Shown here one piece after another: positions 1-8,909 of a stretch of DNA of 8,909 bases. The stretch is from a virus. The stretch lies in UHGV virus genome UHGV-2009704; one strand, written 5' to 3'. A program made the position numbers and the translations under genes. The notes under the pieces were generated by a model. It saw only the letters and a program-made list of their open reading frames with translations. It was not told the DNA's origin and made no database searches. Position 1 is the first letter of the stretch, and each line of letters begins with the position of its first letter.

Positions 1-188
1 TAACGTGAAGACTTCATTACCGACAGATTTTCCGGAGAACGTGGTGACGGCAGTTGAAACCAATGTGTTGAGGTTGCACTGTCGCTTAAGCCGAGAATAC
101 GGTATTAAGTAAGATATGGGGTTTGGCCGTTGTTAATGAGCAGGACAATCATGACCGCCAACGACTGGATTCTCCCTTGGTTTATGTT

Positions 189-221
189 GGTGCGCATAAT
201 GTACGACTCGTTATGTTGAAA
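189..221. other. attL: degenerate dif-like site (XerC arm GGTGCGCATAA, 11-nt central region TGTACGACTCG, XerD-like arm TTATGTTGAAA)
   Basis: The first 15 nt are identical to the perfect dif at 8506-8520. The central region is 11 nt instead of 6, and the XerD-like arm matches TTATGTTAAAT at 9 of 11 positions. Confidence 0.7.
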
Positions 222-222
222 A

Positions 223-254
223 GGCCGCTGCGAAAATAGAATCCCGCAGCGGCC
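223..254 (-). terminator. Rho-independent terminator of the minus-strand accessory operon
   Basis: Perfect 10-bp GC-rich stem GGCCGCTGCG / CGCAGCGGCC with a 12-nt loop. On the minus strand it is followed by TTTTCAACATAA, 32 nt past the stop of the 286-990 CDS. Confidence 0.6.
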
Positions 255-285
255 TCTTTAGCATAACGTCATTGTGCGAACCAAT

Positions 286-990
286 TCATAATGCTGCGGG
301 AGCCACGTAATAGACAATCACAAATACAGCTAATGCTCCACCTGCTCTTACCCAGTTTGATATTTTGACTTCTATAAACCCGGGTATAAATGAGACTACC
401 CCAGCAACTGCTGCTGAAAGAATTATTCGAAAGAAAGTGTATTGAAAGTTCGTTGGATTAGGTATAAATATTGCGATTATTATAAAAAGAATAACAAGTA
501 AAATGCCAAAGCTAAATGCCGCTATTCTCTCGTGTGCTTTTGTCAATTTTTCTTTTCCTTTATTGTCAAATCCATATACTGGCATATCTTCATTAACGAA
601 AAGATTCCTTATTTCTTTTGCAGAACGTTTGTCATGGGCTTTTACTATCCTTTGCATTGAAGCAAAAGCAGTGGAGCTTGGTTTAATACTATTATCATTC
701 ATTACCTCTCTATATTTTTTGTAATGAGCTAAGATAAGGTGAAGAACATCAATGCATGTTTCTGCAAGCCATTGATTCCATTGAGTATTATTTAATTCAT
801 CTACTGTTCTGTTATGTGCAGCGCAGTGTTCTAAATAGCCGAAAAAACTGTCTCCACATGAATTCACGGTATCAAAATCACATTTACCAGATAGGTAACA
901 CTCTAATGACTCAGTATATTTTTCATATAAACGCTCAATTTCTTTTTTTTGATTATCAATGATACCGTGAACATCCATATCTGATTTCAC
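286..990 (-). CDS. Hypothetical protein (234 aa) with Cys-rich N-terminal soluble domain and 2-3 C-terminal transmembrane helices; accessory (moron) gene
   Basis: Long ORF from the six-frame track. The C-terminal 70 aa form hydrophobic stretches (IAAFSFGILLVILFIIIAIFIP, FFRIILSAAVAGVVSFIPGFI, ALAVFVIVYYVAPAAL). The start is either GTG at 988-990, overlapping the upstream stop (TAGTG), or ATG at 976-978. A terminator lies downstream. I recognise no homolog. Confidence 0.6.
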   Translation of the reverse strand: MKSDMDVHGIIDNQKKEIERLYEKYTESLECYLSGKCDFDTVNSCGDSFFGYLEHCAAHNRTVDELNNTQWNQWLAETCIDVLHLILAHYKKYREVMNDNSIKPSSTAFASMQRIVKAHDKRSAKEIRNLFVNEDMPVYGFDNKGKEKLTKAHERIAAFSFGILLVILFIIIAIFIPNPTNFQYTFFRIILSAAVAGVVSFIPGFIEVKISNWVRAGGALAVFVIVYYVAPAAL

Positions 991-1265
991 TATCTTTTTT
1001 GTTGAGTGTTATTTGACTGGGATTGAATTTTTGCCAATAGCGAACTTGCTTTCGATGTATTCAATCCATTACAAATCATTCTTGTAATCGGTTTTTTGTA
1101 AATTCGATGAACGATATTTTCAACTTCAGTGATGCTTTCATTGCCACTGAGTTTTTTTATCTCATTGAACATCTCCTCCAATTGTTCATTTGTTGGATGC
1201 CATTTGATTATATCTAATTCTTCCTCTAATGCTTTTTTAAAAAGGAAAACCTGAAAAGATAACAT
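990..1265 (-). CDS. Hypothetical small protein (91 aa) with conserved C-terminal tail GLNTSKASSLLAKIQ
   Basis: ATG at 1263-1265 is preceded by the strong RBS AAGGAAAG. The stop overlaps the start of the 286-990 gene. The C-terminal tail is homologous to that of the upstream small ORF, with synonymous third-position differences. Confidence 0.55.
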   Translation of the reverse strand: MLSFQVFLFKKALEEELDIIKWHPTNEQLEEMFNEIKKLSGNESITEVENIVHRIYKKPITRMICNGLNTSKASSLLAKIQSQSNNTQQKR

Positions 1266-1266
1266 A

Positions 1267-1563
1267 TTACTTTCCTTGTGTTGGTTTAGTAGTGGATTGT
1301 TGAGCTTTTTCTAAAAGCCTTTTTGCTTTAGATGTGTCCAAACCATCTTGGGCAAAGCCTTGTTGCTTATCATTCTGTTTTTGTTCACTTTTTTTTGGCG
1401 TATTCATCAGTATATACTTTGACTCGTTTTGTTTATCTCGATGACTTACTTTTTGTTTAAGTTTTGCACAAACTAGAACGTGCAGTGTTGGTAATACTGC
1501 ACGTTTGTACCATTCGTGGTACTTAATCCTTTTGTTTGGCAGACATGAGATCTTCTGCTGCAT
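1267..1563 (-). CDS. Hypothetical Lys/Gln-rich small protein with conserved C-terminal tail GLDTSKAKRLLEKAQ; start uncertain
   Basis: The ORF ends with TAA at 1267-1269, 1 nt before the next gene's ATG. The C-terminal 20 codons are supported by paralogy with the 990-1265 tail. Alternative starts are TTG 1581, ATG 1563 (overlaps the upstream ORF by about 40 nt) or ATG 1407. Confidence 0.4.
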   Translation of the reverse strand: MQQKISCLPNKRIKYHEWYKRAVLPTLHVLVCAKLKQKVSHRDKQNESKYILMNTPKKSEQKQNDKQQGFAQDGLDTSKAKRLLEKAQQSTTKPTQGK

Positions 1564-1705
1564 CTTTAGAGTAGTTATCAATCAGATAACCTAAAATCTC
1601 TGTCCATGTAATTGTTTTTCCTAGTTTTACACTGGCATTTATAGCCAGTCGTTCTAGTTTCATTTTTCTTTCTTCCGTCACGTTATAAGTCGTGCGCTTT
1701 GCCAT
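1523..1705 (-). CDS. Putative small DNA-binding regulator (60 aa, possible ribbon-helix-helix fold), first gene of the divergent accessory operon
   Basis: Its N-terminus, MAKRTTYNVTEERKMKLERLAIN, has a beta-strand then helix pattern typical of RHH (Arc/CopG-like) proteins. It sits directly next to the divergent control region upstream of gII. The RBS is weak. Confidence 0.45.
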   Translation of the reverse strand: MAKRTTYNVTEERKMKLERLAINASVKLGKTITWTEILGYLIDNYSKDAAEDLMSAKQKD

Positions 1706-1874
1706 TTTTTACGCTCGTTCAATGCAATATTTGAAGTGAGTATACATGCTCATGAACTCATATCATCCAAGCCTCTTGAACTCACTAGCTCACTGATGTA
1801 ATGTTAAAACACTAATGAACTACTGAACTCATGTGTTAGTAAGTCGTCATTTTTGCAATTTTGAGGATTTATTC
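1706..1874. promoter_or_regulatory. Divergent control region between the accessory operon and gII, with repeated TGAACT(C/A) motifs (candidate operators or iterons)
   Basis: TGAACTCA occurs at 1753-1760, 1777-1784 and 1824-1831, and TGAACTAC at 1816-1823. CTCACT is duplicated at 1781-1795. Possible gII promoter: -35 TTGAAC 1776-1781, -10 TAATGT 1799-1804. Possible minus-strand -10: TATACT at 1744-1739. Confidence 0.5.
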
Positions 1875-2927
1875 GTGATCGATTGGCTTACCGGGATTTT
1901 CCCTTGCACACACAAACCGCTTCCGGCGGGGAGTGTTGTCAGCGTTGATGCTGACGGTGCAATTGAGTGGGAAACCGTTAAGCGACTGACTGTTCGCGGC
2001 TCGCATGAAGCAACGATGAAAGTACGATCGATAGGATCTAATGGCGAAGGTAAAGCGACACATTTGTACATTGATGGTAATCCGTCCAAGTTTTTGCAGG
2101 GGCATTCTGTTGTTGGGTCGGATGATATACAAGGGCTCATGTTGACGGTCTATGCCAGGATTTTATCCTTATTGAATATTCCTCATGATTTAGCGTCTTA
2201 TAAAGCTGTTATAGCAGGTCAGTATAAAATTTCACGTGTTGACATTAATTACATGTATTCATTATCTACGCTAGAAAATGTCAGATCATGGCTTTATGCC
2301 GCCGAATTTAAAGCTAAAACACGCCATGGTCGCGCATGTGGGAAAGGCGGTACAGTTTATTTAGGTAAAAACTCCCGTCGATGGAGTCTGAAATTTTATT
2401 CAAAATATGATGAACACGTTTCGGGTAAAAAAGGGCACCAGATAGCCGAAGATTTTGTACGAGCCGGGTTACTGGACTGGACGAAAGATAAATTACGTAT
2501 TGAATTAACATTAAGAACAACTGAGCTTATTGATTTAAATTTAACGCTTGGCGCTAACTGGAATATGAAAACACCACGTCAATTATTCTCTGAATATGTA
2601 GGGAGAATAGAAATGAATCAGAATGCTATTTTAAGTGATGAAAAAATAACGAAACTGCCAAGAAAAATACAGTCAACTTATTTACTTTGGAAACAAGGGG
2701 CTAACATGAAAGAAATGTTACCTCATAACACTTTTTATCGCCATAGAAGAGAATTGCTTTCGTTCGGTATCGATATTAATTTCTATTGTGATTCACCAGA
2801 CTCTAATAACGTTGTTCCGCTAATAAGAACGCTGGAAGCCAAGCCAGTGGAAATCCCCTTATGGATTTATGAGAAAGGTTTTATTTTCGATTACAACCGT
2901 ATTTCGCACGCCAGTAGCTGGCATTAA
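1875..2927 (+). CDS. gII: Replication initiation protein pII (rolling-circle nickase)
   Basis: Recalled similarity to M13 pII: N-terminal MIDWL vs MIDML, KFLQGHSVVG vs KVLQGHNVFG, and C-terminal SNNVVPLIR vs CNNVVPLVR. GTG at 1875 has the RBS GAGGA 7 nt upstream. The track ORF starts at GTG 1833, which has no RBS. Confidence 0.85.
   Translation: MIDWLTGIFPCTHKPLPAGSVVSVDADGAIEWETVKRLTVRGSHEATMKVRSIGSNGEGKATHLYIDGNPSKFLQGHSVVGSDDIQGLMLTVYARILSLLNIPHDLASYKAVIAGQYKISRVDINYMYSLSTLENVRSWLYAAEFKAKTRHGRACGKGGTVYLGKNSRRWSLKFYSKYDEHVSGKKGHQIAEDFVRAGLLDWTKDKLRIELTLRTTELIDLNLTLGANWNMKTPRQLFSEYVGRIEMNQNAILSDEKITKLPRKIQSTYLLWKQGANMKEMLPHNTFYRHRRELLSFGIDINFYCDSPDSNNVVPLIRTLEAKPVEIPLWIYEKGFIFDYNRISHASSWH
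2613..2927 (+). CDS. gX: pX, in-frame internal initiation product of gII (104 aa)
   Basis: Internal ATG at 2613 is preceded by GGGAGAA. Its position and N-terminal MN match the M13 gX start within gII. Called by analogy with Ff. Confidence 0.5.
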   Translation: MNQNAILSDEKITKLPRKIQSTYLLWKQGANMKEMLPHNTFYRHRRELLSFGIDINFYCDSPDSNNVVPLIRTLEAKPVEIPLWIYEKGFIFDYNRISHASSWH

Positions 2928-2938
2928 AGGAAAGTAAT

Positions 2939-3256
2939 ATGTCTAATTATGGTCTTTTCGTTAAGGGTAAAATGTTGGGAGCCCGCCAACGTAATAAAGT
3001 TAATGGTCAGGGCTATTATAATGAAATTGGTATTGGCCTTGAAATACCTGATGGTTTTGGTGGTACAAAGCAGGATCAAATTATTATTCGAGTTTCTCAG
3101 ACTCTCGTTAACGCAGGTCTAATGAACCAGGCGAATGCTTTCATTGGGAAATTAGTTCAAATTCCTGTCTATGTCCGTGCGTGGTCAATGGAGGGTAGGG
3201 AAGGTGTAACTTATAATGTTTCTTCCGATGGTGGCATCGCAGAGATCAAAGGTTAA
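2939..3256 (+). CDS. gV: Putative ssDNA-binding protein pV (105 aa, divergent)
   Basis: Sits at the canonical gV position, immediately after gII, with the strong RBS AAGGAAAG. Sequence resemblance to the Ff gV OB-fold is only weak (GQGYYNEIGIGLEIPDG vs GKPYSLNEQLCYVDLGNEYP). Confidence 0.6.
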   Translation: MSNYGLFVKGKMLGARQRNKVNGQGYYNEIGIGLEIPDGFGGTKQDQIIIRVSQTLVNAGLMNQANAFIGKLVQIPVYVRAWSMEGREGVTYNVSSDGGIAEIKG

Positions 3257-3258
3257 AT

Positions 3259-3345
3259 ATGGACGATGTTATTCAAATTTTGATAGCGTCTGGCATCGTT
3301 ATTTCTTTTGGCCTCGGCGCGATTACTGCGGGGGTCTTTCGTTAA
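3259..3345 (+). CDS. gVII: Minor coat protein pVII (28 aa)
   Basis: Small hydrophobic ORF MDDVIQILIASGIVISFGLGAITAGVFR in the Ff gVII position, with RBS AAAGG. Its stop overlaps the gIX start (TAATG). Confidence 0.6.
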   Translation: MDDVIQILIASGIVISFGLGAITAGVFR

Positions 3346-3440
3346 TGTATATCGTTTATTTCTTCGGGGCTTATACCTTTGGTTTTGCCCTTTTCTATGC
3401 GGTCGGTTCATTTAAATCATTTTCTGACCGATTAATGTAA
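3345..3440 (+). CDS. gIX: Minor coat protein pIX (31 aa)
   Basis: MYIVYFFGAYTFGFALFYAVGSFKSFSDRLM resembles M13 pIX, including the C-terminal RLM motif. It is translationally coupled to gVII. Confidence 0.6.
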   Translation: MYIVYFFGAYTFGFALFYAVGSFKSFSDRLM

Positions 3441-3459
3441 CCTTAATGGAGTTATTCCT

Positions 3460-3702
3460 ATGAAAATTCTGTCTACTGTTAAATATAAAGTTGCTCTGGC
3501 TTCAACTGCGCTTTTTGTTTCTGCAAGTTCTTTTGCGGCTGAAGGCGCTACAGGTGGTACTGATTATGCAGGTCAGGCAATGGATGCTTTGTTGACTCAG
3601 GCAAATGATCTCATTGGTAAAGTATGGCCTGTTGTTGTGGCTGTGGTTGGCGCTGGGCTTGCCATTCGTATTTTCAAAAAATTCTCTTCAAAAGCGGTTT
3701 GA
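3460..3702 (+). CDS. gVIII: Major coat protein pVIII precursor (80 aa)
   Basis: Signal peptide ending SSFA, then mature AEGATGG...[25 protein letters not shown]. This closely matches the IKe/Ff major coat protein, including the C-terminal basic [11 protein letters not shown] is GGAG. Confidence 0.9.
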
Positions 3703-3711
3703 ATTTCACTC

Positions 3712-3735
3712 AGGGGCACTCGTTGCCCCTTTATT
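3712..3735 (+). terminator. Rho-independent terminator downstream of gVIII
   Basis: 7-bp stem AGGGGCA / TGCCCCT with a 5-nt loop, followed by TTATT. This is the same position as the strong terminator after gene VIII in Ff phages. Confidence 0.7.
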
Positions 3736-3748
3736 AAAGCGGGTTACT

Positions 3749-5029
3749 ATGAAAAGGAAAATATTAATTCTTTCCGCTGTCCTCATTTCTCCTTTTTCAC
3801 ATGCTGAGTCATGGGAAAGCATTACTAAATCCACTTATCAAAGCTCTGCCTACGCTGAAAGTAAGCAAATAACCAATCAGGATGGCTCTAAGTCAACGGT
3901 TTACTATATTGATGCTGCTATGCAGGCCTCCGCTTGTCAGGGTGCTAAATCCAGTGCTCAGAGTGTATTTACTCAGGTTAAACCAACTTATGAGGGTATC
4001 TGGCCTGATTCTGAATTCCGTCTTGTTTTTACTGGTGATTGTACTTACAGCGATTCACCAGGGCAGAAGGATAAATATTGGTCTTTAACGGCTTATATTG
4101 TTGGTGATATTCAGCGTTCTGTTCCTGATGAAAAACCTACTGACCCGACACCAGAAGAAATTTGTGAAGCGAAGCCGCCAGAAGAAGGTGTATTTAATAA
4201 TGTTGATTCATATGATGGTGGTCGTTATATCTACTATAACGGCTGTGAATATGAGGCTACTGGTGTCATTGTTTGTCAGGGTGATGGTACTGTTTGCGCT
4301 GCAACATGGAAGCCTACAGGTACTGTAGCTGACCCCTCTGATAAACCCTCAACCCCCCAAAATGGTGGTGGTGAGTCTGGCGGTGGTGAGTCTGGCGGTG
4401 GTGAGTCCGGTGGCGGTAGTTCTGGCGGTGGTGAGTCCGGTGGCGGTAGTTCTGGCGGTGGTGAGTCCGGTGGCGGTAGTTCTGGCGGTGGCTTTAGTGG
4501 TTCCAGTCTTTCTAAAGGTGATATTCAGTCTGCTATCGAAGGTGCTTCACCCAAAATAGCCAGCGATATTCATGATAAATTAACGGAGAAAGACACTTCA
4601 TCAGATGATAAAAAAAATGCCGATGAACAAACTAGGAATAATATAAATCGTCTTGACGATTCCATTAACAATCTTACGCGGGGGGCTGGCCGTTTTGCTG
4701 ACCCTTCAGGTGGTGATTCTCGTTATGGAAAGGGCGACTCTGAATTAGATGGCGCTTCTACTTTGGCTGATTCTGAATTGGGAATTGAAAAGGATTCTCA
4801 CGGTGCTTTATGGGAAGCATTTTTAAATAAAGGTGCTATGCTGCCTAATTTACCCAATGGTAACGGCTGCTCTGATTTTATTATTTTTCCCGGAGAGGTT
4901 TATCAGATTGATATTGGTTGCGATAAATTACTGACTATTAAAGATGTTCTTTCATGGGTTTTTTATTGCCTTACGTTCTGGTATGTCTTTACTTCTTTAA
5001 CTTCATTGCTTCGCAAAGGGGGTGAGTGA
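3749..5029 (+). CDS. gIII: Minor coat / host-attachment protein pIII (426 aa)
   Basis: Signal peptide [19 protein letters not shown], a Gly-rich linker of ([10 protein letters not shown]) repeats, and a C-terminal membrane anchor IGCDKLL...[17 protein letters not shown] resembling IKe/Ff pIII. Its stop overlaps the gVI start. Confidence 0.9.
4367..4486 (+). repeat. Tandem coding repeats in the gIII glycine-rich linker
   Basis: Two 15-bp units GGTGGTGAGTCTGGC (4367-4396) are followed by three perfect 30-bp units GGTGGTGAGTCCGGTGGCGGTAGTTCTGGC (4397-4426, 4427-4456, 4457-4486). Confidence 0.9.
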
Positions 5030-5370
5030 TGCCTTTATTATTAGGTATTCCTGCATTGTTGCGTTTTCTTATTGGTCTTGTTCCTTTGTTTATTGGCTAT
5101 GTGGCGAGTTTTTTAGCTCGACTTGCTACCAGAACAGGATTAATCGCCTTTGCATTGGTCGCATTAATTACAACAACTGTTACGCTTTTAATGCAGTACC
5201 TTGCTGAGGTCATGTATAACGGTTTACCTGCTGATTTCTCCCATTTAATGGCGTCTGTATTGCCTGACCATTTTCAGGCGTGTGTTAACGTTATTATGGT
5301 TACTCGTATCAGTGTTTTTGTTTTCGATTTAAAACAAAAATTTCTTGATTATGCAAACAGGGTGATTTAA
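5029..5370 (+). CDS. gVI: Minor coat protein pVI (113 aa)
   Basis: [24 protein letters not shown] resembles M13 pVI (MPVLLGIPLLLRFLGFLLV). The ATG overlaps the gIII stop, and the stop abuts the gI ATG. Confidence 0.85.
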   Translation: MPLLLGIPALLRFLIGLVPLFIGYVASFLARLATRTGLIAFALVALITTTVTLLMQYLAEVMYNGLPADFSHLMASVLPDHFQACVNVIMVTRISVFVFDLKQKFLDYANRVI

Positions 5371-6465
5371 ATGGCGGTTCATGTAGTAACAGGCAAATTA
5401 GGCTCAGGCAAGACACTTGTTAGTGTTTCCAGAATACAGGAAAGACTTGCTAAGGGTTGTCCTGTTGCCACTAATCTTGATCTTAAATTGCATAATATGC
5501 CTATGGTTGGGCGTTATGCGAAAAAAACGCGCGTTATTCGCATTCCTGACAAGCCTTCATTAAATGATTTACTTGCTATTGGTATTGGGAATACATCTTA
5601 CGATGAATCCCGTAATGGCCTCCTTGTACTTGATGAATGTGGTACTTGGTTTAATTCCCGCTCATGGGGTGATAAAGACAGACAACCTGTTATTGACTGG
5701 TTTTTACATGCCAGAAAATTAGGCTGGGATATTATATTTTTGATTCAGGATATTTCGATAATGGATAAGCAAGCTCGTCTGGCGCTTGCTGAGCATGTTG
5801 TTTATTGTCGCCGTTCAGATAAATTAAACATTCCTTTTGTTGGCTCCATTATGAATTTGGTTTCAGGGGCGCGATTTTCTTTACCAAAGGTACACTTTGG
5901 CATTGTCAAATATGGTGATAACGTTAATTCAATTACTGTTGATAAATGGATATACACCGGAAAATCATTATATTCCGCCTACAATACAAAACAGGTTTTT
6001 ACTGATAACTATCCGCATGGTGCTTATTCGCTTTTGCCACCATTTATCACGCACGGTCAATTTTCTGTTCACAGAGGATTTAATTATTATATGCGCCTCA
6101 CGAAAATTTATTTTCGCAAATCGAACCGTCTTATATTAATGCTTTCTTTTTTGGCGCTGGGGCTTGCGCTTGGTTTCTGGCTCCAGTCTGGAAAGAATGT
6201 TGATGAAATCTCCGCTATTAAATCTGCTTATGCTGAACAGGCGAGGGCGGTAACGCCTGATTCGTCCAGTGACTTACCCCGACTTTCTATTAATTCTTTT
6301 TCACAACTTGGCTTTGACGTTTCCGTTACGTTTGTTGATGCAAAAGGTACGAAATATCAGTATTTTGATTTGATTAAAGATGGTTATTCCGTTGATATTA
6401 AAGATGCCTGTCGTGTTGTTATTAGAAAAGGCCGTTATTTACAGACTGTTATCTGTCAGGAGTAA
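5371..6465 (+). CDS. gI: Assembly protein pI (Zot-like P-loop ATPase, 364 aa)
   Basis: MAVHVVTGKLGSGKTLVSV carries a Walker A motif, and there is extensive recalled similarity to M13 pI (LLVLDECGTWFN, IDWFLHARKLGWDIIFL, ALAEHVVYCRR). A transmembrane segment lies near residue 255. Confidence 0.9.
   Translation: MAVHVVTGKLGSGKTLVSVSRIQERLAKGCPVATNLDLKLHNMPMVGRYAKKTRVIRIPDKPSLNDLLAIGIGNTSYDESRNGLLVLDECGTWFNSRSWGDKDRQPVIDWFLHARKLGWDIIFLIQDISIMDKQARLALAEHVVYCRRSDKLNIPFVGSIMNLVSGARFSLPKVHFGIVKYGDNVNSITVDKWIYTGKSLYSAYNTKQVFTDNYPHGAYSLLPPFITHGQFSVHRGFNYYMRLTKIYFRKSNRLILMLSFLALGLALGFWLQSGKNVDEISAIKSAYAEQARAVTPDSSSDLPRLSINSFSQLGFDVSVTFVDAKGTKYQYFDLIKDGYSVDIKDACRVVIRKGRYLQTVICQE
6091..6465 (+). CDS. 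gXI: pXI, in-frame internal initiation product of gI (124 aa)
   Basis: Internal ATG at 6091 begins MRLTKIYFRK, which aligns with the M13 pXI start MKLTKIYLKK. An AGAGGA lies upstream. Called by analogy with Ff. Confidence 0.5.
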   Translation: MRLTKIYFRKSNRLILMLSFLALGLALGFWLQSGKNVDEISAIKSAYAEQARAVTPDSSSDLPRLSINSFSQLGFDVSVTFVDAKGTKYQYFDLIKDGYSVDIKDACRVVIRKGRYLQTVICQE

Positions 6466-6472
6466 TATTATT

Positions 6473-7738
6473 ATGCGCTCTGTTATTGTTGCTTTTTTAT
6501 TTGCCTGTTCATTCTGCGTTTCTGCTGAAACTGTTAATTTAAACAATTCATCTGTTCGCTCATTTGTTCAGTGGTATTCTTCAAAAACTGGCAAGCCTGT
6601 TATTGTTAATCCTGATATTAAAGGAAACGTAACCGTATTTAATGCTGATGTTAATCCAACAAATATTGATGATTTCTTTAAGTCTGTTCTGAATGCTAAC
6701 GGTTTTGTCATGCTTTCTGGCAATCCTGCGGTAGTCTCTTTGCCGTCTAAATTACCTTCACAGATGGTTTCGGATTCCGATGATTCTGATAACCAGTCTT
6801 ATGATACTTTTCCTTCTGAGCCATCTTACCAGCCAGTACCTGTGGCGCTTACGGTCAGAAATTTTAAGCTGACAAAAGTTAGATCGTCCGATGTTCAGCA
6901 ACTGATTAAAATTTATCTTGATTCTAATGGTGGTGGTAATGTCGTGGATTATCCAGGCAATAACTCGCTGATTGTTTCTGCGCCTGACGAGCTGCTGCCG
7001 GTTCTGTCCGATTTTATCAATTCTGTGGATGTTGCCCGCGATCAGGTTCTCATTCAGTCGCTGATGTTTGAAACCAGCTTGTCTGATGGCGTTGATTTAT
7101 CGTTTGCGGCAGGTTCTGCATCCGGTCATAAGGTTGCGGGGGGCTTTAATACTTCTGCACTGGGTAGCGCTCTTTCTACGGCGGGCGGTTCTTTTGGTAT
7201 TTTTGATGGTAACGTGTTGGCGCTGTCTCTGCGTGCTGTCCAGAGTAATTCACGCTCTAAGGTGATTTCAACGCCGCGTATTCTTACTCAGTCTGGTCAG
7301 ACTGGTTACATTTCCGTAGGTAAGAATGTGCCGTTTATCACCGGAAAGGTAACGGGCGAATCTGCCGGGGTAAATAATCCGTTTCAGACTATCGAGCGTC
7401 ATGATGTTGGCGTTTCTCTCAAGGTAACGCCTGTTGTCATGGGTAACGGGCAACTAGTTCTGACTATCGACACTCGCGCTGATTCAATCAGCAATGATGA
7501 TCAGGCATCCGATATTATTACTAATCAGCGCCAGATTCAGACGACAGTCCAGATTAAGGATGGTCAGACGTTGTTATTGGGGGGGCTTATCGATTCATCG
7601 TTTAGCAATGCTGAGCGTTCAGTTCCAGTTATAAGTAAAATTCCTCTTATAGGCTGGATTTTCAGTAGCAAGGCAGACAGCAATGAACAGCGTATTATGT
7701 ATATTTTGCTTACAGCACATATCATTCGTCCACTTTGA
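6473..7738 (+). CDS. gIV: Outer-membrane secretin pIV (421 aa)
   Basis: Signal peptide MRSVIVAFLFACSFCVSA and strong recalled similarity to M13 pIV (SFAAGS, GGSFGIF, PRILT, VPFITGKVTGESAGVNNPFQTIER, GQTLLLGGL, SKIPLIG). RBS is AGGAG. Confidence 0.9.
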   Translation: MRSVIVAFLFACSFCVSAETVNLNNSSVRSFVQWYSSKTGKPVIVNPDIKGNVTVFNADVNPTNIDDFFKSVLNANGFVMLSGNPAVVSLPSKLPSQMVSDSDDSDNQSYDTFPSEPSYQPVPVALTVRNFKLTKVRSSDVQQLIKIYLDSNGGGNVVDYPGNNSLIVSAPDELLPVLSDFINSVDVARDQVLIQSLMFETSLSDGVDLSFAAGSASGHKVAGGFNTSALGSALSTAGGSFGIFDGNVLALSLRAVQSNSRSKVISTPRILTQSGQTGYISVGKNVPFITGKVTGESAGVNNPFQTIERHDVGVSLKVTPVVMGNGQLVLTIDTRADSISNDDQASDIITNQRQIQTTVQIKDGQTLLLGGLIDSSFSNAERSVPVISKIPLIGWIFSSKADSNEQRIMYILLTAHIIRPL

Positions 7739-7779
7739 TGGATAGCGGGTAGGTGCGTGAGCCCTGCTCGCTATCCATC
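7737..7779. other. Imperfect hairpin immediately after gIV (candidate packaging signal or ssDNA structural element)
   Basis: GATGGATAGCG (7737-7747) pairs with CGCTATCCATC (7769-7779), with further imperfect pairing inward and a 9-nt loop. No T-tract follows, so it is not a canonical intrinsic terminator. Confidence 0.5.
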
Positions 7780-7807
7780 AAATGGACATTATTGATTGGG
7801 GTAACTA

Positions 7808-8116
7808 ATGGATTCTTATGGGATTTTATCTGCTCTGGCAGAACGAACGATTACAGCGGAAGAAGCAAAAACAATGACACTTGCAGCCAGAAGTTCTTCG
7901 GCTCAGGTAAATGAAGCATCACTTGCTCTGTTACTGATTGATAATACTCTGGATGCGATCAAAGCAGCTGCCAGTGAAGGGAAAGGATACACTTTACTTC
8001 CTTCTTATGAGATTTCTTTAAAAGCCATTGATTTAGCAGAAGAATTTTTAAGGAAACAATGCGGCTATGTTATTGATAACCAGAATGGCGTAAGGACGGT
8101 CTATTGGTTTATATGA
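7808..8116 (+). CDS. Hypothetical protein (102 aa), accessory ORF downstream of gIV
   Basis: ORF from the six-frame track with a possible weak RBS (GGGGT). It has no transmembrane segment and I recognise no homolog. It lies inside the prophage between gIV and attR. Confidence 0.5.
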   Translation: MDSYGILSALAERTITAEEAKTMTLAARSSSAQVNEASLALLLIDNTLDAIKAAASEGKGYTLLPSYEISLKAIDLAEEFLRKQCGYVIDNQNGVRTVYWFI

Positions 8117-8117
8117 T

Positions 8118-8162
8118 AACCCCGGACAGTGACAAAACTTGCTTTTGTTAGTGTCCGGGGTT
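8118..8162. other. Long imperfect hairpin (about 20-bp stem) between the two distal accessory ORFs; candidate origin or packaging-signal structure
   Basis: AACCCCGGACAGTGACAAAA (8118-8137) pairs with TTTTGTTAGTGTCCGGGGTT (8143-8162), with one mismatch and one G-T pair, and a 5-nt loop. It starts 2 nt after the stop of the 7808-8116 ORF. A T-run follows at about 8183-8190. Confidence 0.55.
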
Positions 8163-8233
8163 GGCCAAGCCGAACAATTCTGTTTTTTTAGCGTTATTGC
8201 TGATTCGGCGCGGCAGCATTACGAGGAGATAAA

Positions 8234-8467
8234 ATGCAATTTTTCACATCCAGCGATACTGTAATGTTATGTGCGAAGACCTGCGATCGCTGTGGTCGCC
8301 ATGCGAAGACGGTGGTAGATGACATTGAGTTCAATGAGTTTCTGTCTGTTAATCACTTAGCTGGATACGGTTCAATTTTTGGTGACAGTAATCGCTTAAA
8401 ACTGGATTTATGCCAACATTGCCTGAAAGACGTCCTGGGCCAGTGGATTACGGTCTGTGACCAATGA
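8234..8467 (+). CDS. Hypothetical small protein (77 aa) with two CxxC pairs (possible zinc ribbon)
   Basis: Strong RBS GAGGAG 5 nt upstream of the ATG. Cys pairs are CDRC (residues 17-20) and CQHC (60-63). It ends 38 nt before the dif site. Confidence 0.6.
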   Translation: MQFFTSSDTVMLCAKTCDRCGRHAKTVVDDIEFNEFLSVNHLAGYGSIFGDSNRLKLDLCQHCLKDVLGQWITVCDQ

Positions 8468-8505
8468 CGGCACCGGTAACGCCAGTTCCCACCATCCTTA
8501 CCATT

Positions 8506-8533
8506 GGTGCGCATAATGTATATTATGTTAAAT
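8506..8533. other. attR: canonical 28-bp dif site (XerC arm GGTGCGCATAA, central TGTATA, XerD arm TTATGTTAAAT)
   Basis: Exact match to the enterobacterial dif core sequence as I recall it. It is a direct repeat of the left dif-like site. Confidence 0.85.
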
Positions 8534-8909
8534 ATGGTGGGTTTGTTCTTAAGTTCATGTGTTCCGCTCTTTCAGTAGCTTAACTGATGAATCAGTCAGC
8601 AGCTTTTGCCGTGCAAGCTACGCGGCGGTTCGTACCAGATTGGCCACCTCCATCTCCTGGTTCGCTTTCCCCTCCCCCCGGTAAACCTCACCCAACGTTA
8701 ATTAATGATGTCAGTATGTGGGCGCTATCCTTGTATGTAAAATCCACTGACGATTACGCCCATCTGTGAAAAAAAACTCACAATGCCATTCGATGCATCT
8801 CCATACCGAACGAGGCGTTATCGTCTTTATCGCCCCGTAGTGGATATCAGAAAATCAATCAGGGCCTTCACTCTTTTCGTTTTACCCGCGTTTTTGGGGT
8901 AATAGAGAT

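Follow-up and report, generated by a model that had tools for sequence, protein, structure and literature searches.

The 8,909-base window analysed here, meaning the whole stretch of DNA at its full length, is a piece of Escherichia coli chromosome with the end of hipA on its left and a filamentous prophage at dif. Two hairpins that follow gene IV (gIV) of this phage are the main subject. By homology, the first (hairpin 1, 7728-7788, + strand) is a packaging, or morphogenetic, signal of the IKe/I2-2/Ff type. The second (hairpin 2, 8118-8162, + strand), together with its 3′ tail, may be a host-dependent site at which synthesis of the minus (complementary) strand is primed, a reading to which a probability of about one half can be given. 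The stretch from gIV to gene II (gII) as a whole probably holds a packaging signal, a candidate minus-strand origin, a folded attP and a candidate plus-strand origin in the order found in the Ff phages, with accessory genes and the integration site widening the distances between them.

On the circular viral strand, the order of elements is gIV, packaging signal, open reading frame (ORF) 102, hairpin 2, ORF77, attP(+), reverse-strand cargo, plus-origin hairpin, ORF60 (− strand), operator and gII. An earlier reading, made from the letters of the window and its ORFs (the sequence-only reading), had suggested that an inserted ORF splits the Ff-type cis-acting elements and that these may be rearranged relative to Ff. 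The split is borne out by relatives that have no credible ORF at this place (L015 and L019) and by others that have unrelated ORFs there. The rearrangement is not: the order of packaging signal, minus origin, plus origin and gII is kept, and only the spacing has changed.

In the mechanism proposed for this arrangement, hairpin 1 would stay base-paired in the pV-coated single strand and would mark the end engaged by the pVII/pIX/pI assembly machinery. At hairpin 2 and its tail (8118-8220), a host enzyme would make the primer of the complementary strand once the single strand has entered, the candidate enzymes being RNA polymerase, DnaG or the PriA primosome. The CTX-type folded attP would come next (8506-8520 joined to 204-283 in the circular genome), and pII would nick the plus-strand origin at 1477-1522. 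ORF102 and ORF77 would then be exchangeable cargo between fixed cis elements.

The prophage is a UPphi-type filamentous phage, with IKe/I2-2-like morphogenesis genes and YpfPhi/I2-2-like gII-gV, integrated at dif. Uropathogenic E. coli, Salmonella, Klebsiella and Yersinia pestis commonly carry UPphi and YpfPhi/CUS-1 phages, whose cis-acting sites had not been mapped before; according to a recent preprint, the packaging signals of integrative filamentous phages are largely unidentified. A map of these elements based on homology gives exact fragments for phagemids and for mobilisation tests, and explains where UPphi-type phages accept cargo genes. The packaging-signal assignment alone is ordinary, and hairpin 2 is the new part if the role proposed for it holds.

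Hairpin 1 at the end of gene IV

Both of the strong hairpins that had been described distal to gIV are present by DNA folding. When 70-nucleotide (nt) segments were folded along the full length of the window, these two gave the most stable and the second most stable fold of the + strand. Hairpin 1 has -24.5 kcal/mol on the + strand and -21.1 on the − strand, and hairpin 2 has -21.7 and -18.6 kcal/mol, respectively; both are weaker on the − strand because of G.T wobbles. A longer structure at attP (183-290) is more stable than either hairpin. Mean folding energies after shuffling are about -6 to -7 kcal/mol for both.

The first stem had been described as 17 bp long, at 7737-7779, and as starting exactly at the gIV stop codon. 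The hairpin stands, but its extent does not: the core arms (7734-7753 and 7763-7782) are 20 nt long and 90% complementary, with 18 Watson-Crick pairs and two G.T wobbles, and the stop codon (TGA, 7736-7738) lies inside the 5′ arm. Two apical pairs follow past a bulged T, so that the apex reads GG-T(bulge)-GC-GTGA-GC-CC, and an outer 5-bp extension pairs 7728-7732 with 7784-7788. Over 61 nt, hairpin 1 folds with -21.4 kcal/mol (z = -8.7, none of 200 shuffles as good); over 69-70 nt the figure of -24.5 kcal/mol corresponds to 27 pairs and a z of about -8. The fold is specific to the + strand because of its T.G and G.T wobbles.

Hairpin 1 is homologous to the annotated morphogenetic signal of IKe and I2-2. 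In the IKe record, the 'morphogenetic signal' is placed at 6141-6196 and overlaps the gIV stop (6151); in the I2-2 record it is placed at 2260-2330, with the gIV stop at 2273. The apex CGGGTAGGTGCG..AGCCCTGC matches the IKe intergenic region at 20 of 22 positions and is the only significant similarity of that region to the window, and the apex of the window (GGGTAGGTGCG..AGCCCTGC) is nearly identical to those of both the IKe and the I2-2 signal. A long imperfect viral-strand hairpin that starts at or overlaps the gIV stop is common to hairpin 1, to these two signals and to hairpin A of Ff. The packaging-signal motif 'CGGGT closely followed by GGTG', credited to Russel and Model (1989) in a recent preprint, lies on the ascending limb of hairpin 1 as it does in f1: the window has GCGGGTAGGTG at 7745-7755, the f1 record has GCGGGTGTGGTG in the equivalent place, and IKe has CCGGGTAGGTG. 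The folding energies of the packaging signals compared are -18.2 (IKe), -25.8 (I2-2) and -29.6 kcal/mol (f1), against -24.5 for hairpin 1. There are also differences. The lower stem of hairpin 1 is wholly unlike those of the IKe, I2-2 and Ff signals in sequence and is kept only through compensatory changes. Unlike in IKe and Ff, the element next to it is an accessory gene rather than the minus origin, and its phage integrates at dif.

Conservation of the hairpin was followed in 47 loci encoding pIV relatives. Every relative with enough downstream DNA has a strong hairpin at the gIV stop, over a range of pIV identity from 100% to about 48%. Relatives with a pIV identity of at least 70% have the apex GG-T(bulge)-GC-GNNA-GC-CC in common with IKe and I2-2, and If1-like relatives have another apex, CTGC-GCA-GCGGGG. 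Covariation was scored in an alignment anchored on the apex, because MAFFT and RNAalifold on unanchored sequences gave a poor consensus. This alignment comprises 14 distinct sequences and 22 pairs, with 500 shuffles and slid registers as controls: 90.9% of the cells are paired, 15 of the 22 pairs have changed on both sides, and the covariation score is reached by none of the shuffles, while registers slid by 1-3 bases pair only 35-47%. Homology to the annotated signals, position, motif and covariation thus uphold the earlier suggestion that hairpin 1 is the packaging signal; the function itself is carried over from IKe and f1.

Strong hairpins of their own at the end of gIV are also found in CUS-1 (L052, 14855-14924), in a Klebsiella inovirus (L059, 6301-6370) and in the If1-like loci L027-L035. 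The hairpins of these lineages have a different shared apex (CCGCAGCG / CTGC-GCA-GCGGGG) and may be a second packaging-signal family.

Hairpin 2 and its possible role

The arms of hairpin 2 lie exactly where a second hairpin of about 20 bp had been claimed: 8118-8137 pairs with 8143-8162, in arms of 20 nt that are 90% complementary and enclose a 5-nt loop (-20.3 kcal/mol, z = -5.9, a value that none of 200 shuffles equals). The fold is specific to the + strand because of two adjacent conserved G.T wobbles. The 3′ tail (8163-8220, + strand) has the form GGCCAAGCCG...T-rich...GATTCGGCGCGGCAGC, and it contains a weak second stem (8164-8174 with 8204-8214).

The block formed by the hairpin and its tail (8115-8220) is 88% identical to CUS-1 of UTI89 (L052, 15335-15438) and to YpfPhi of Y. 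pestis, and it is kept there although pIV is only about 27% identical and the flanking ORFs differ. Hairpin 2 is also present in inoviruses of Klebsiella, whose pIV is 23% identical and for which no pII homologue was found, in an Izhakiella phage (L099) with UPphi-like structural genes in which no pII homologue was found, in a Brenneria phage and in the If1-like phage L033. It occurs with at least four unrelated morphogenesis modules and with several Rep types. Covariation was assessed in 18 distinct phage and plasmid copies over 20 pairs, again with 500 shuffles and slid controls. In this alignment 93.3% of the cells are paired and 7 of the 20 pairs have changed on both sides, values that no shuffle reaches; slid registers are 36-50% paired. 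Because compensatory changes occur inside the UPphi lineage itself (L014, L019), hairpin 2 is taken to be under selection there, as hairpin 1 is.

The DNA between the two hairpins varies. It holds ORF102 in the window, an unrelated ORF of 82 amino acids in L011 and L018, and one of 103 amino acids in L012 and L013. In L015 and L019 only about 130-140 nt separate the hairpins and hold no credible ORF, and in L059 hairpin 2 follows about 65 nt after the packaging signal. Since hairpin 2 is kept while the intervening DNA varies, ORF102 is cargo placed between two fixed sites.

Copies are also found in plasmids, in 30 of 72,556 records. Isolated copies are about 50 nt long and 80-86% identical, with no other phage DNA around them. 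In IncFIA/FIB plasmids they lie between traT and traD; others are in a Salmonella plasmid of the IncFII type and, beside toxin-antitoxin genes, in a Yersinia plasmid. In the IncFIA/FIB plasmids (L053, L090) and the IncFII plasmid (NZ_CP024167.1), the phage (+) sense of hairpin 2 is on the template strand of the tra/leading-region genes, which in F is the transferred strand. This strand evidence comprises two independent contexts only; use of the IncFII copy as a query to widen the plasmid sample found only 2 records. A longer block occurs in a Klebsiella IncFIB plasmid (L055, 4001-4450), where hairpin 2 and an ORF77 homologue form a 448-nt block that is 91% identical to L059 6414-6861; apart from this block, the stretch showed no phage DNA. 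The ORF77 homologue of the related locus L095 has 56% amino-acid identity to the ORF77 of the window.

A priming role for hairpin 2 and its tail is suggested by several of these features. Hairpin 2 is the hairpin that follows the packaging signal, as the minus origin does in IKe, and it never occurs together with an element of the IKe type, the two being mutually exclusive in the loci examined; this argues for a minus origin. Its phage (+) sense on the transferred strand in two plasmid contexts points to a priming site. Its independence of Rep type argues against a plus-strand origin, and its independence of the morphogenesis module, together with the hairpins that CUS-1 and the Klebsiella phages have at their own gIV ends, makes it unlikely to be a packaging signal.

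The last point bears on a different model, in which hairpin 2 would be a second packaging signal, that of the CUS-1/YpfPhi lineage, brought in by gII-gV-attP recombination and now vestigial or used in cross-packaging. Hairpin 2 does travel with the part common to UPphi and CUS-1 (hairpin 2, attP, the plus-origin hairpin and gII-gV), and like packaging signals it is long and strand-specific. However, the strongest hairpin of CUS-1 and of the Klebsiella inoviruses is at the canonical gIV end. A packaging signal should also co-vary with pVII/pIX/pI, whereas hairpin 2 accompanies unrelated morphogenesis modules, and the compensatory changes in the UPphi lineage mark it as selected there in addition to hairpin 1. 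Such a model is quite unlikely, and hairpin 2 as the packaging signal of the CUS-1 and Klebsiella phages themselves was rejected, given their own gIV-end hairpins.

It may also be that both hairpins act in RNA, as terminators, processing sites or 3′-end stabilisers that insulate ORF102 from gIV and from ORF77. They are located directly after the stop codons of gIV and ORF102 and in the mRNA sense, the IKe record also labels its copy of hairpin 1 'pot. transcription termination', and a plasmid copy of hairpin 2 comes directly after hicB in the same sense. The absence of a T-tract from the first hairpin had been remarked on before, and in fact neither hairpin has one; the T-run nearest hairpin 2 is at 8185-8191, 22 nt after it. 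A consensus scan of 7650-8560 found no terminator-like site and matched no promoter at the hairpins, and a search of Rfam (E <= 1) gave no match at either hairpin. In the IncF plasmids, moreover, hairpin 2 is antisense to the flanking tra genes, and both hairpins persist in relatives that have no ORF between them. A role in RNA is thus an unlikely explanation of the pair, although for hairpin 1 it would be compatible with a role in packaging and would not exclude it.

The variable ORFs on both sides of hairpin 2 would fit a third possibility, namely that it is a site of recombination or mobility, for example a cassette junction, an element like attC or a site on which a strand-specific recombinase acts. 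This would explain the differing cargo ORFs that flank it and the isolated plasmid copies, among them those next to toxin-antitoxin genes in the Yersinia plasmid. The stem is bounded by AAC...GTT and comes directly after an ORF, a superficial likeness to integron attC sites. Yet there is no associated recombinase, and no repeated cassette array was seen. The copies of hairpin 2 are 80-88% alike, whereas attC sites are typically far less similar to one another in sequence. A Xer-like half-site lies about 70 nt upstream of hairpin 2 only in L055; in L054 it is about 3.9 kb away, and none was found in L053. The variation in cargo would be explained equally well if co-infecting phages underwent homologous recombination at whichever cis element they have in common. 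A recombination site is very unlikely, and hairpin 2 as an attC-like or Xer-related site was rejected for want of a recombinase, a cassette array or a consistent Xer site nearby.

The priming reading has its own difficulties. Hairpin 2 has no detectable sequence similarity to the IKe/Ff minus origin, and 50,697 phage records gave no match. A consensus scan of 8100-8230 found no sigma-70-like -35/-10 hexamers, although such a scan treats the DNA as a linear duplex and could miss a promoter in folded single-stranded DNA. No consistent CTG primase start site was found among the hairpin 2 copies compared. The agreement in strand could be due to chance (about 1 in 4), since it comes from only two independent plasmid contexts, and plasmid copies are rare. 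In the Salmonella replicative form (L002), the stem of hairpin 2 has an uncompensated C-to-A change. The integrative relatives L021 and L024 (pIV 71-72% identical, attP block present) show neither hairpin 2 nor an IKe-type minus origin in the sequence examined, so a third kind of minus origin may exist. More generally, the assignments are drawn only from homology, position and distribution. The hexamer AAGCCG at 8167-8172 differs by one base from AAGCGG, a possible PriA-site hexamer; it is only a lead.

In Ff and IKe, host RNA polymerase primes the minus-strand origin (hairpins B and C). Hairpin 2 resembles it in being the next conserved viral-strand hairpin after the packaging signal, in having two adjacent stems, in being independent of the phage's own proteins and in a distribution that excludes the IKe-type element; it differs in sequence, in having no -35/-10-like hexamers and in being shorter. 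A second likeness is to the single-strand initiation (ssi) sites and Frpo single-stranded DNA promoters of F-like plasmids, elements that prime complementary-strand synthesis or transcription on entering single-stranded DNA (PMC11541004). Hairpin 2 is likewise a strand-specific hairpin on an F-like transferred strand, in the two contexts above. It is not, however, located in the leading region by ssb or psiB and has no promoter hexamers, and the two are likened by description only.

A broader claim, and a more tentative one, is that hairpin 2 with its tail could be a previously undescribed, portable and host-enzyme-dependent signal for the initiation of complementary-strand synthesis. In enterobacterial inoviruses that integrate at dif, and in at least four of their morphogenesis lineages, such a signal would have taken the place of the Ff/IKe-type minus origin; some F-like conjugative plasmids would also have acquired it, on their transferred strand. 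Filamentous phages and conjugative plasmids both enter cells as single strands, and a priming signal shared between them would, if real, be a small example of a host-directed single-stranded DNA element moving between mobile DNAs.

The plus-strand origin and the region upstream of gene II

The sequence-only reading had offered the interval 7737-8233 as a place for the replication origin as well. For the minus strand this is plausible, in the form of hairpin 2; for the plus strand it did not hold. A model in which the interval contains replication origins including the pII-nicked plus-strand origin has the precedent of Ff and IKe, which carry both origins in the intergenic region after gIV. However, no nick-site-like motif, which had been proposed as something to look for near the hairpins, was found in 7737-8233; hairpin 2 occurs with unrelated Rep proteins; and a conserved hairpin linked to pII is located elsewhere, at 1477-1522. 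The model is extremely unlikely. The IKe and f1 intergenic regions match the window only at the apex of the packaging signal, which argues that the window has no minus or plus origin of the Ff/IKe type; the f1 intergenic sequence in this comparison was not taken from the f1 record, which was used for the motif and the fold.

The initiator gene, gII (1875-2927, + strand), is of the I2-2/YpfPhi type and has the Pfam domains Phage_CRI and G2P_X_C. Its product is 56% identical to the pII of I2-2 and 85% identical to pII of the YpfPhi/CUS type, and gave no match to IKe. Association with this type of pII suggests a candidate plus-strand origin at 1477-1522 (+ strand), outside 7737-8233. It consists of a hairpin, AACGTGCAGT-GTTGGTAAT-ACTGCACGTT (1477-1505), and a palindrome, GTACCA-TTCG-TGGTAC (1507-1522), and is the only non-coding block near gII common to phages with this pII type. 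The hairpin region (1476-1508) matches the I2-2 intergenic region at 91% over 34 nt and CUS-1 at 90% over 41 nt. In CUS-type phages the palindrome is GTCTCA-TTCC-TGAGAC, a compensatory difference. Of 22 loci with I2-2-type pII, 19 have the hairpin, and no locus lacking this pII has it; two of the three loci with no match are truncated upstream of gII, and the third (L096) covers the stretch but does not match the search pattern. In L099 an ORF60 homologue is present, and I2-2-type pII and the hairpin were both not found. GGT/AATA, the sequence of its loop, is similar to TTT/AATAGTGGAC, the nick region of Ff and IKe. It counts against this assignment that the hairpin is located just 3′ of ORF60 (− strand) and could double as the terminator of that gene.

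Another candidate for the nick site was TTTAGTAGTGGATTGTTG at 1285-1302, which has 3 mismatches to the Ff/IKe nick consensus TTTAATAGTGGACTCTTG against a chance expectation of 0.01. It was rejected as an origin because no inverted repeat flanks it, because it falls within the variable cargo (285-1462) and because the circular Salmonella form lacks it; the match is probably due to chance.

Repeats at 1706-1874 had also been put forward as a place where the origin might lie. The divergent spacer between ORF60 (− strand) and gII (1706-1832) contains four TGAACT(C/A)(A/C) repeats (TGAACTCA-like), at 1753, 1777, 1816 and 1824. No match to this spacer was found in CUS-1, which has a different helix-turn-helix regulator gene there, even though its pII is 85% identical, and the spacer is for this reason more likely to be an operator than an origin. 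It is probably a promoter/operator region, with the repeats probably serving as operator sites for the small ORF60 protein. In I2-2 (L051), an unannotated partial homologue of ORF60 is present on the − strand at 2799-2903, within the 'intergenic region' (43% over 35 amino acids, E = 1e-4), just downstream of the conserved plus-origin-like hairpin.

Attachment sites, limits and gene content of the prophage

The right end of the prophage, attR (8506-8533, + strand), is an intact E. coli dif, GGTGCGCATAA-TGTATA-TTATGTTAAAT, that can be read directly in the sequence. The left end, attL (189-283, + strand), is the attP of the phage and has two inverted dif-like sites in a long forked hairpin of the CTX-type attP(+) kind. 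In a narrower sense attL is 189-221, and the junction is identical in the circular Salmonella replicative form L002 (2026-2133); in the circular phage, 8506-8520 is joined to 204-284 to give attP. The inverted sites are GGTGCGCATAA...TTATGTTGAAA and, on the other strand, GGTTCGCACAA...TTATGCTAAAG. The + strand (183-290, 108 nt) folds into a forked hairpin of about 95 nt with an unpaired centre (-30.7 kcal/mol, z = -7.7), and the block at 187-284 is 97-99% conserved in the Salmonella circle and CUS-1 (99% in CUS-1). The attP(+) of CTXphi likewise has two inverted dif-like sites, a forked + strand hairpin and an unpaired central region. In the window this fold is an element separate from hairpins 1 and 2, and the third single-stranded DNA structure in the gIV-to-gII stretch. 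YpfPhi and CUS-1 have been listed as CTX-type elements that exploit Xer (PMC4246890).

Some smaller features of these sites were also seen. The G+C-rich tip of attP (223-254) looks like a bidirectional terminator, and in the linear duplex the XerC- and XerD-like arms of attP are 11 nt apart, not 6. A 17-nt inverted repeat at 8488-8541 (CCCACCATCCTTACCAT / ATGTTAAATATGGTGGG, 82% complementary) brackets the restored dif; one of its arms is phage DNA and the other includes chromosomal DNA, and it may be due to chance.

The same prophage is found next to hipA in 44 complete E. coli genomes, which cover at least 80% of the window at 98.6-99.9% identity. These are mostly human and urinary isolates, for example F11, in which an identical prophage has a RefSeq annotation that includes gene IV. 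A 7,938-bp circular 'plasmid' of Salmonella enterica (L002) is the replicative form of a close relative, and comparison with this circle fixes the limits of the phage at about 187-8520; similarity to other genomes that carry the prophage stops at 8520-8533. The core common to the window and the Salmonella circle is 1463-8520 plus 187-284. Between these lies the variable cargo (285-1462). Its − strand encodes ORF234, ORF91 and part of ORF104, none of them with a function assigned; instead of this cargo, the Salmonella circle has a Doc-family (death-on-curing) toxin gene.

The gene content and chimeric make-up are those of UPphi901. The UPphi901/UPphi phages were described as chimeras of IKe/I2-2-like structural genes with YpfPhi-like gII and gV, integrated at dif, with two unidentified genes where IKe has intergenic DNA and accessory genes in reverse orientation beyond dif (Shapiro and Turner 2020, PMC7307601). 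The map of cis-acting elements presented here is an addition to that description: the terms 'packaging signal', 'origin of replication', 'hairpin' and 'stem-loop' each occur 0 times in PMC7307601.

The + strand of the prophage encodes gII and gV, as well as gVII, gVIII, gIII and gVI, and also gI (Zot-like) and gIV, and the reverse strand has four ORFs. The secretin gene gIV (6473-7738, + strand) is identified by its Pfam Secretin, GspD N0 and Secretin_N domains and by the F11 annotation, and its product has about 71% amino-acid identity to the pIV of IKe (L025). ORF102 (7808-8116, + strand), the accessory cargo gene between the hairpins, belongs to PHROG 4115, which has no function assigned, and has no match in Pfam, NCBIfam or PADLOC. 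ORF77 (8234-8467, + strand), between hairpin 2 and attP, encodes a small CxxC...CxxC protein of PHROG 5435 with a weak zinc-finger match under the Pfam cut-off; Klebsiella inoviruses and a Klebsiella plasmid have homologues 3′ of hairpin 2. No informative family was found for ORF102, ORF77 or the reverse-strand ORFs in Pfam, PHROGs, NCBIfam or PADLOC. In gene III, a Gly/Ser-rich linker at 4360-4480 is coded by near-perfect repeats of 15 and 30 nt (repeated GTGGTGAGTCC); the F11 copy of this gene is annotated as frameshifted, and its length varies among relatives at the linker.

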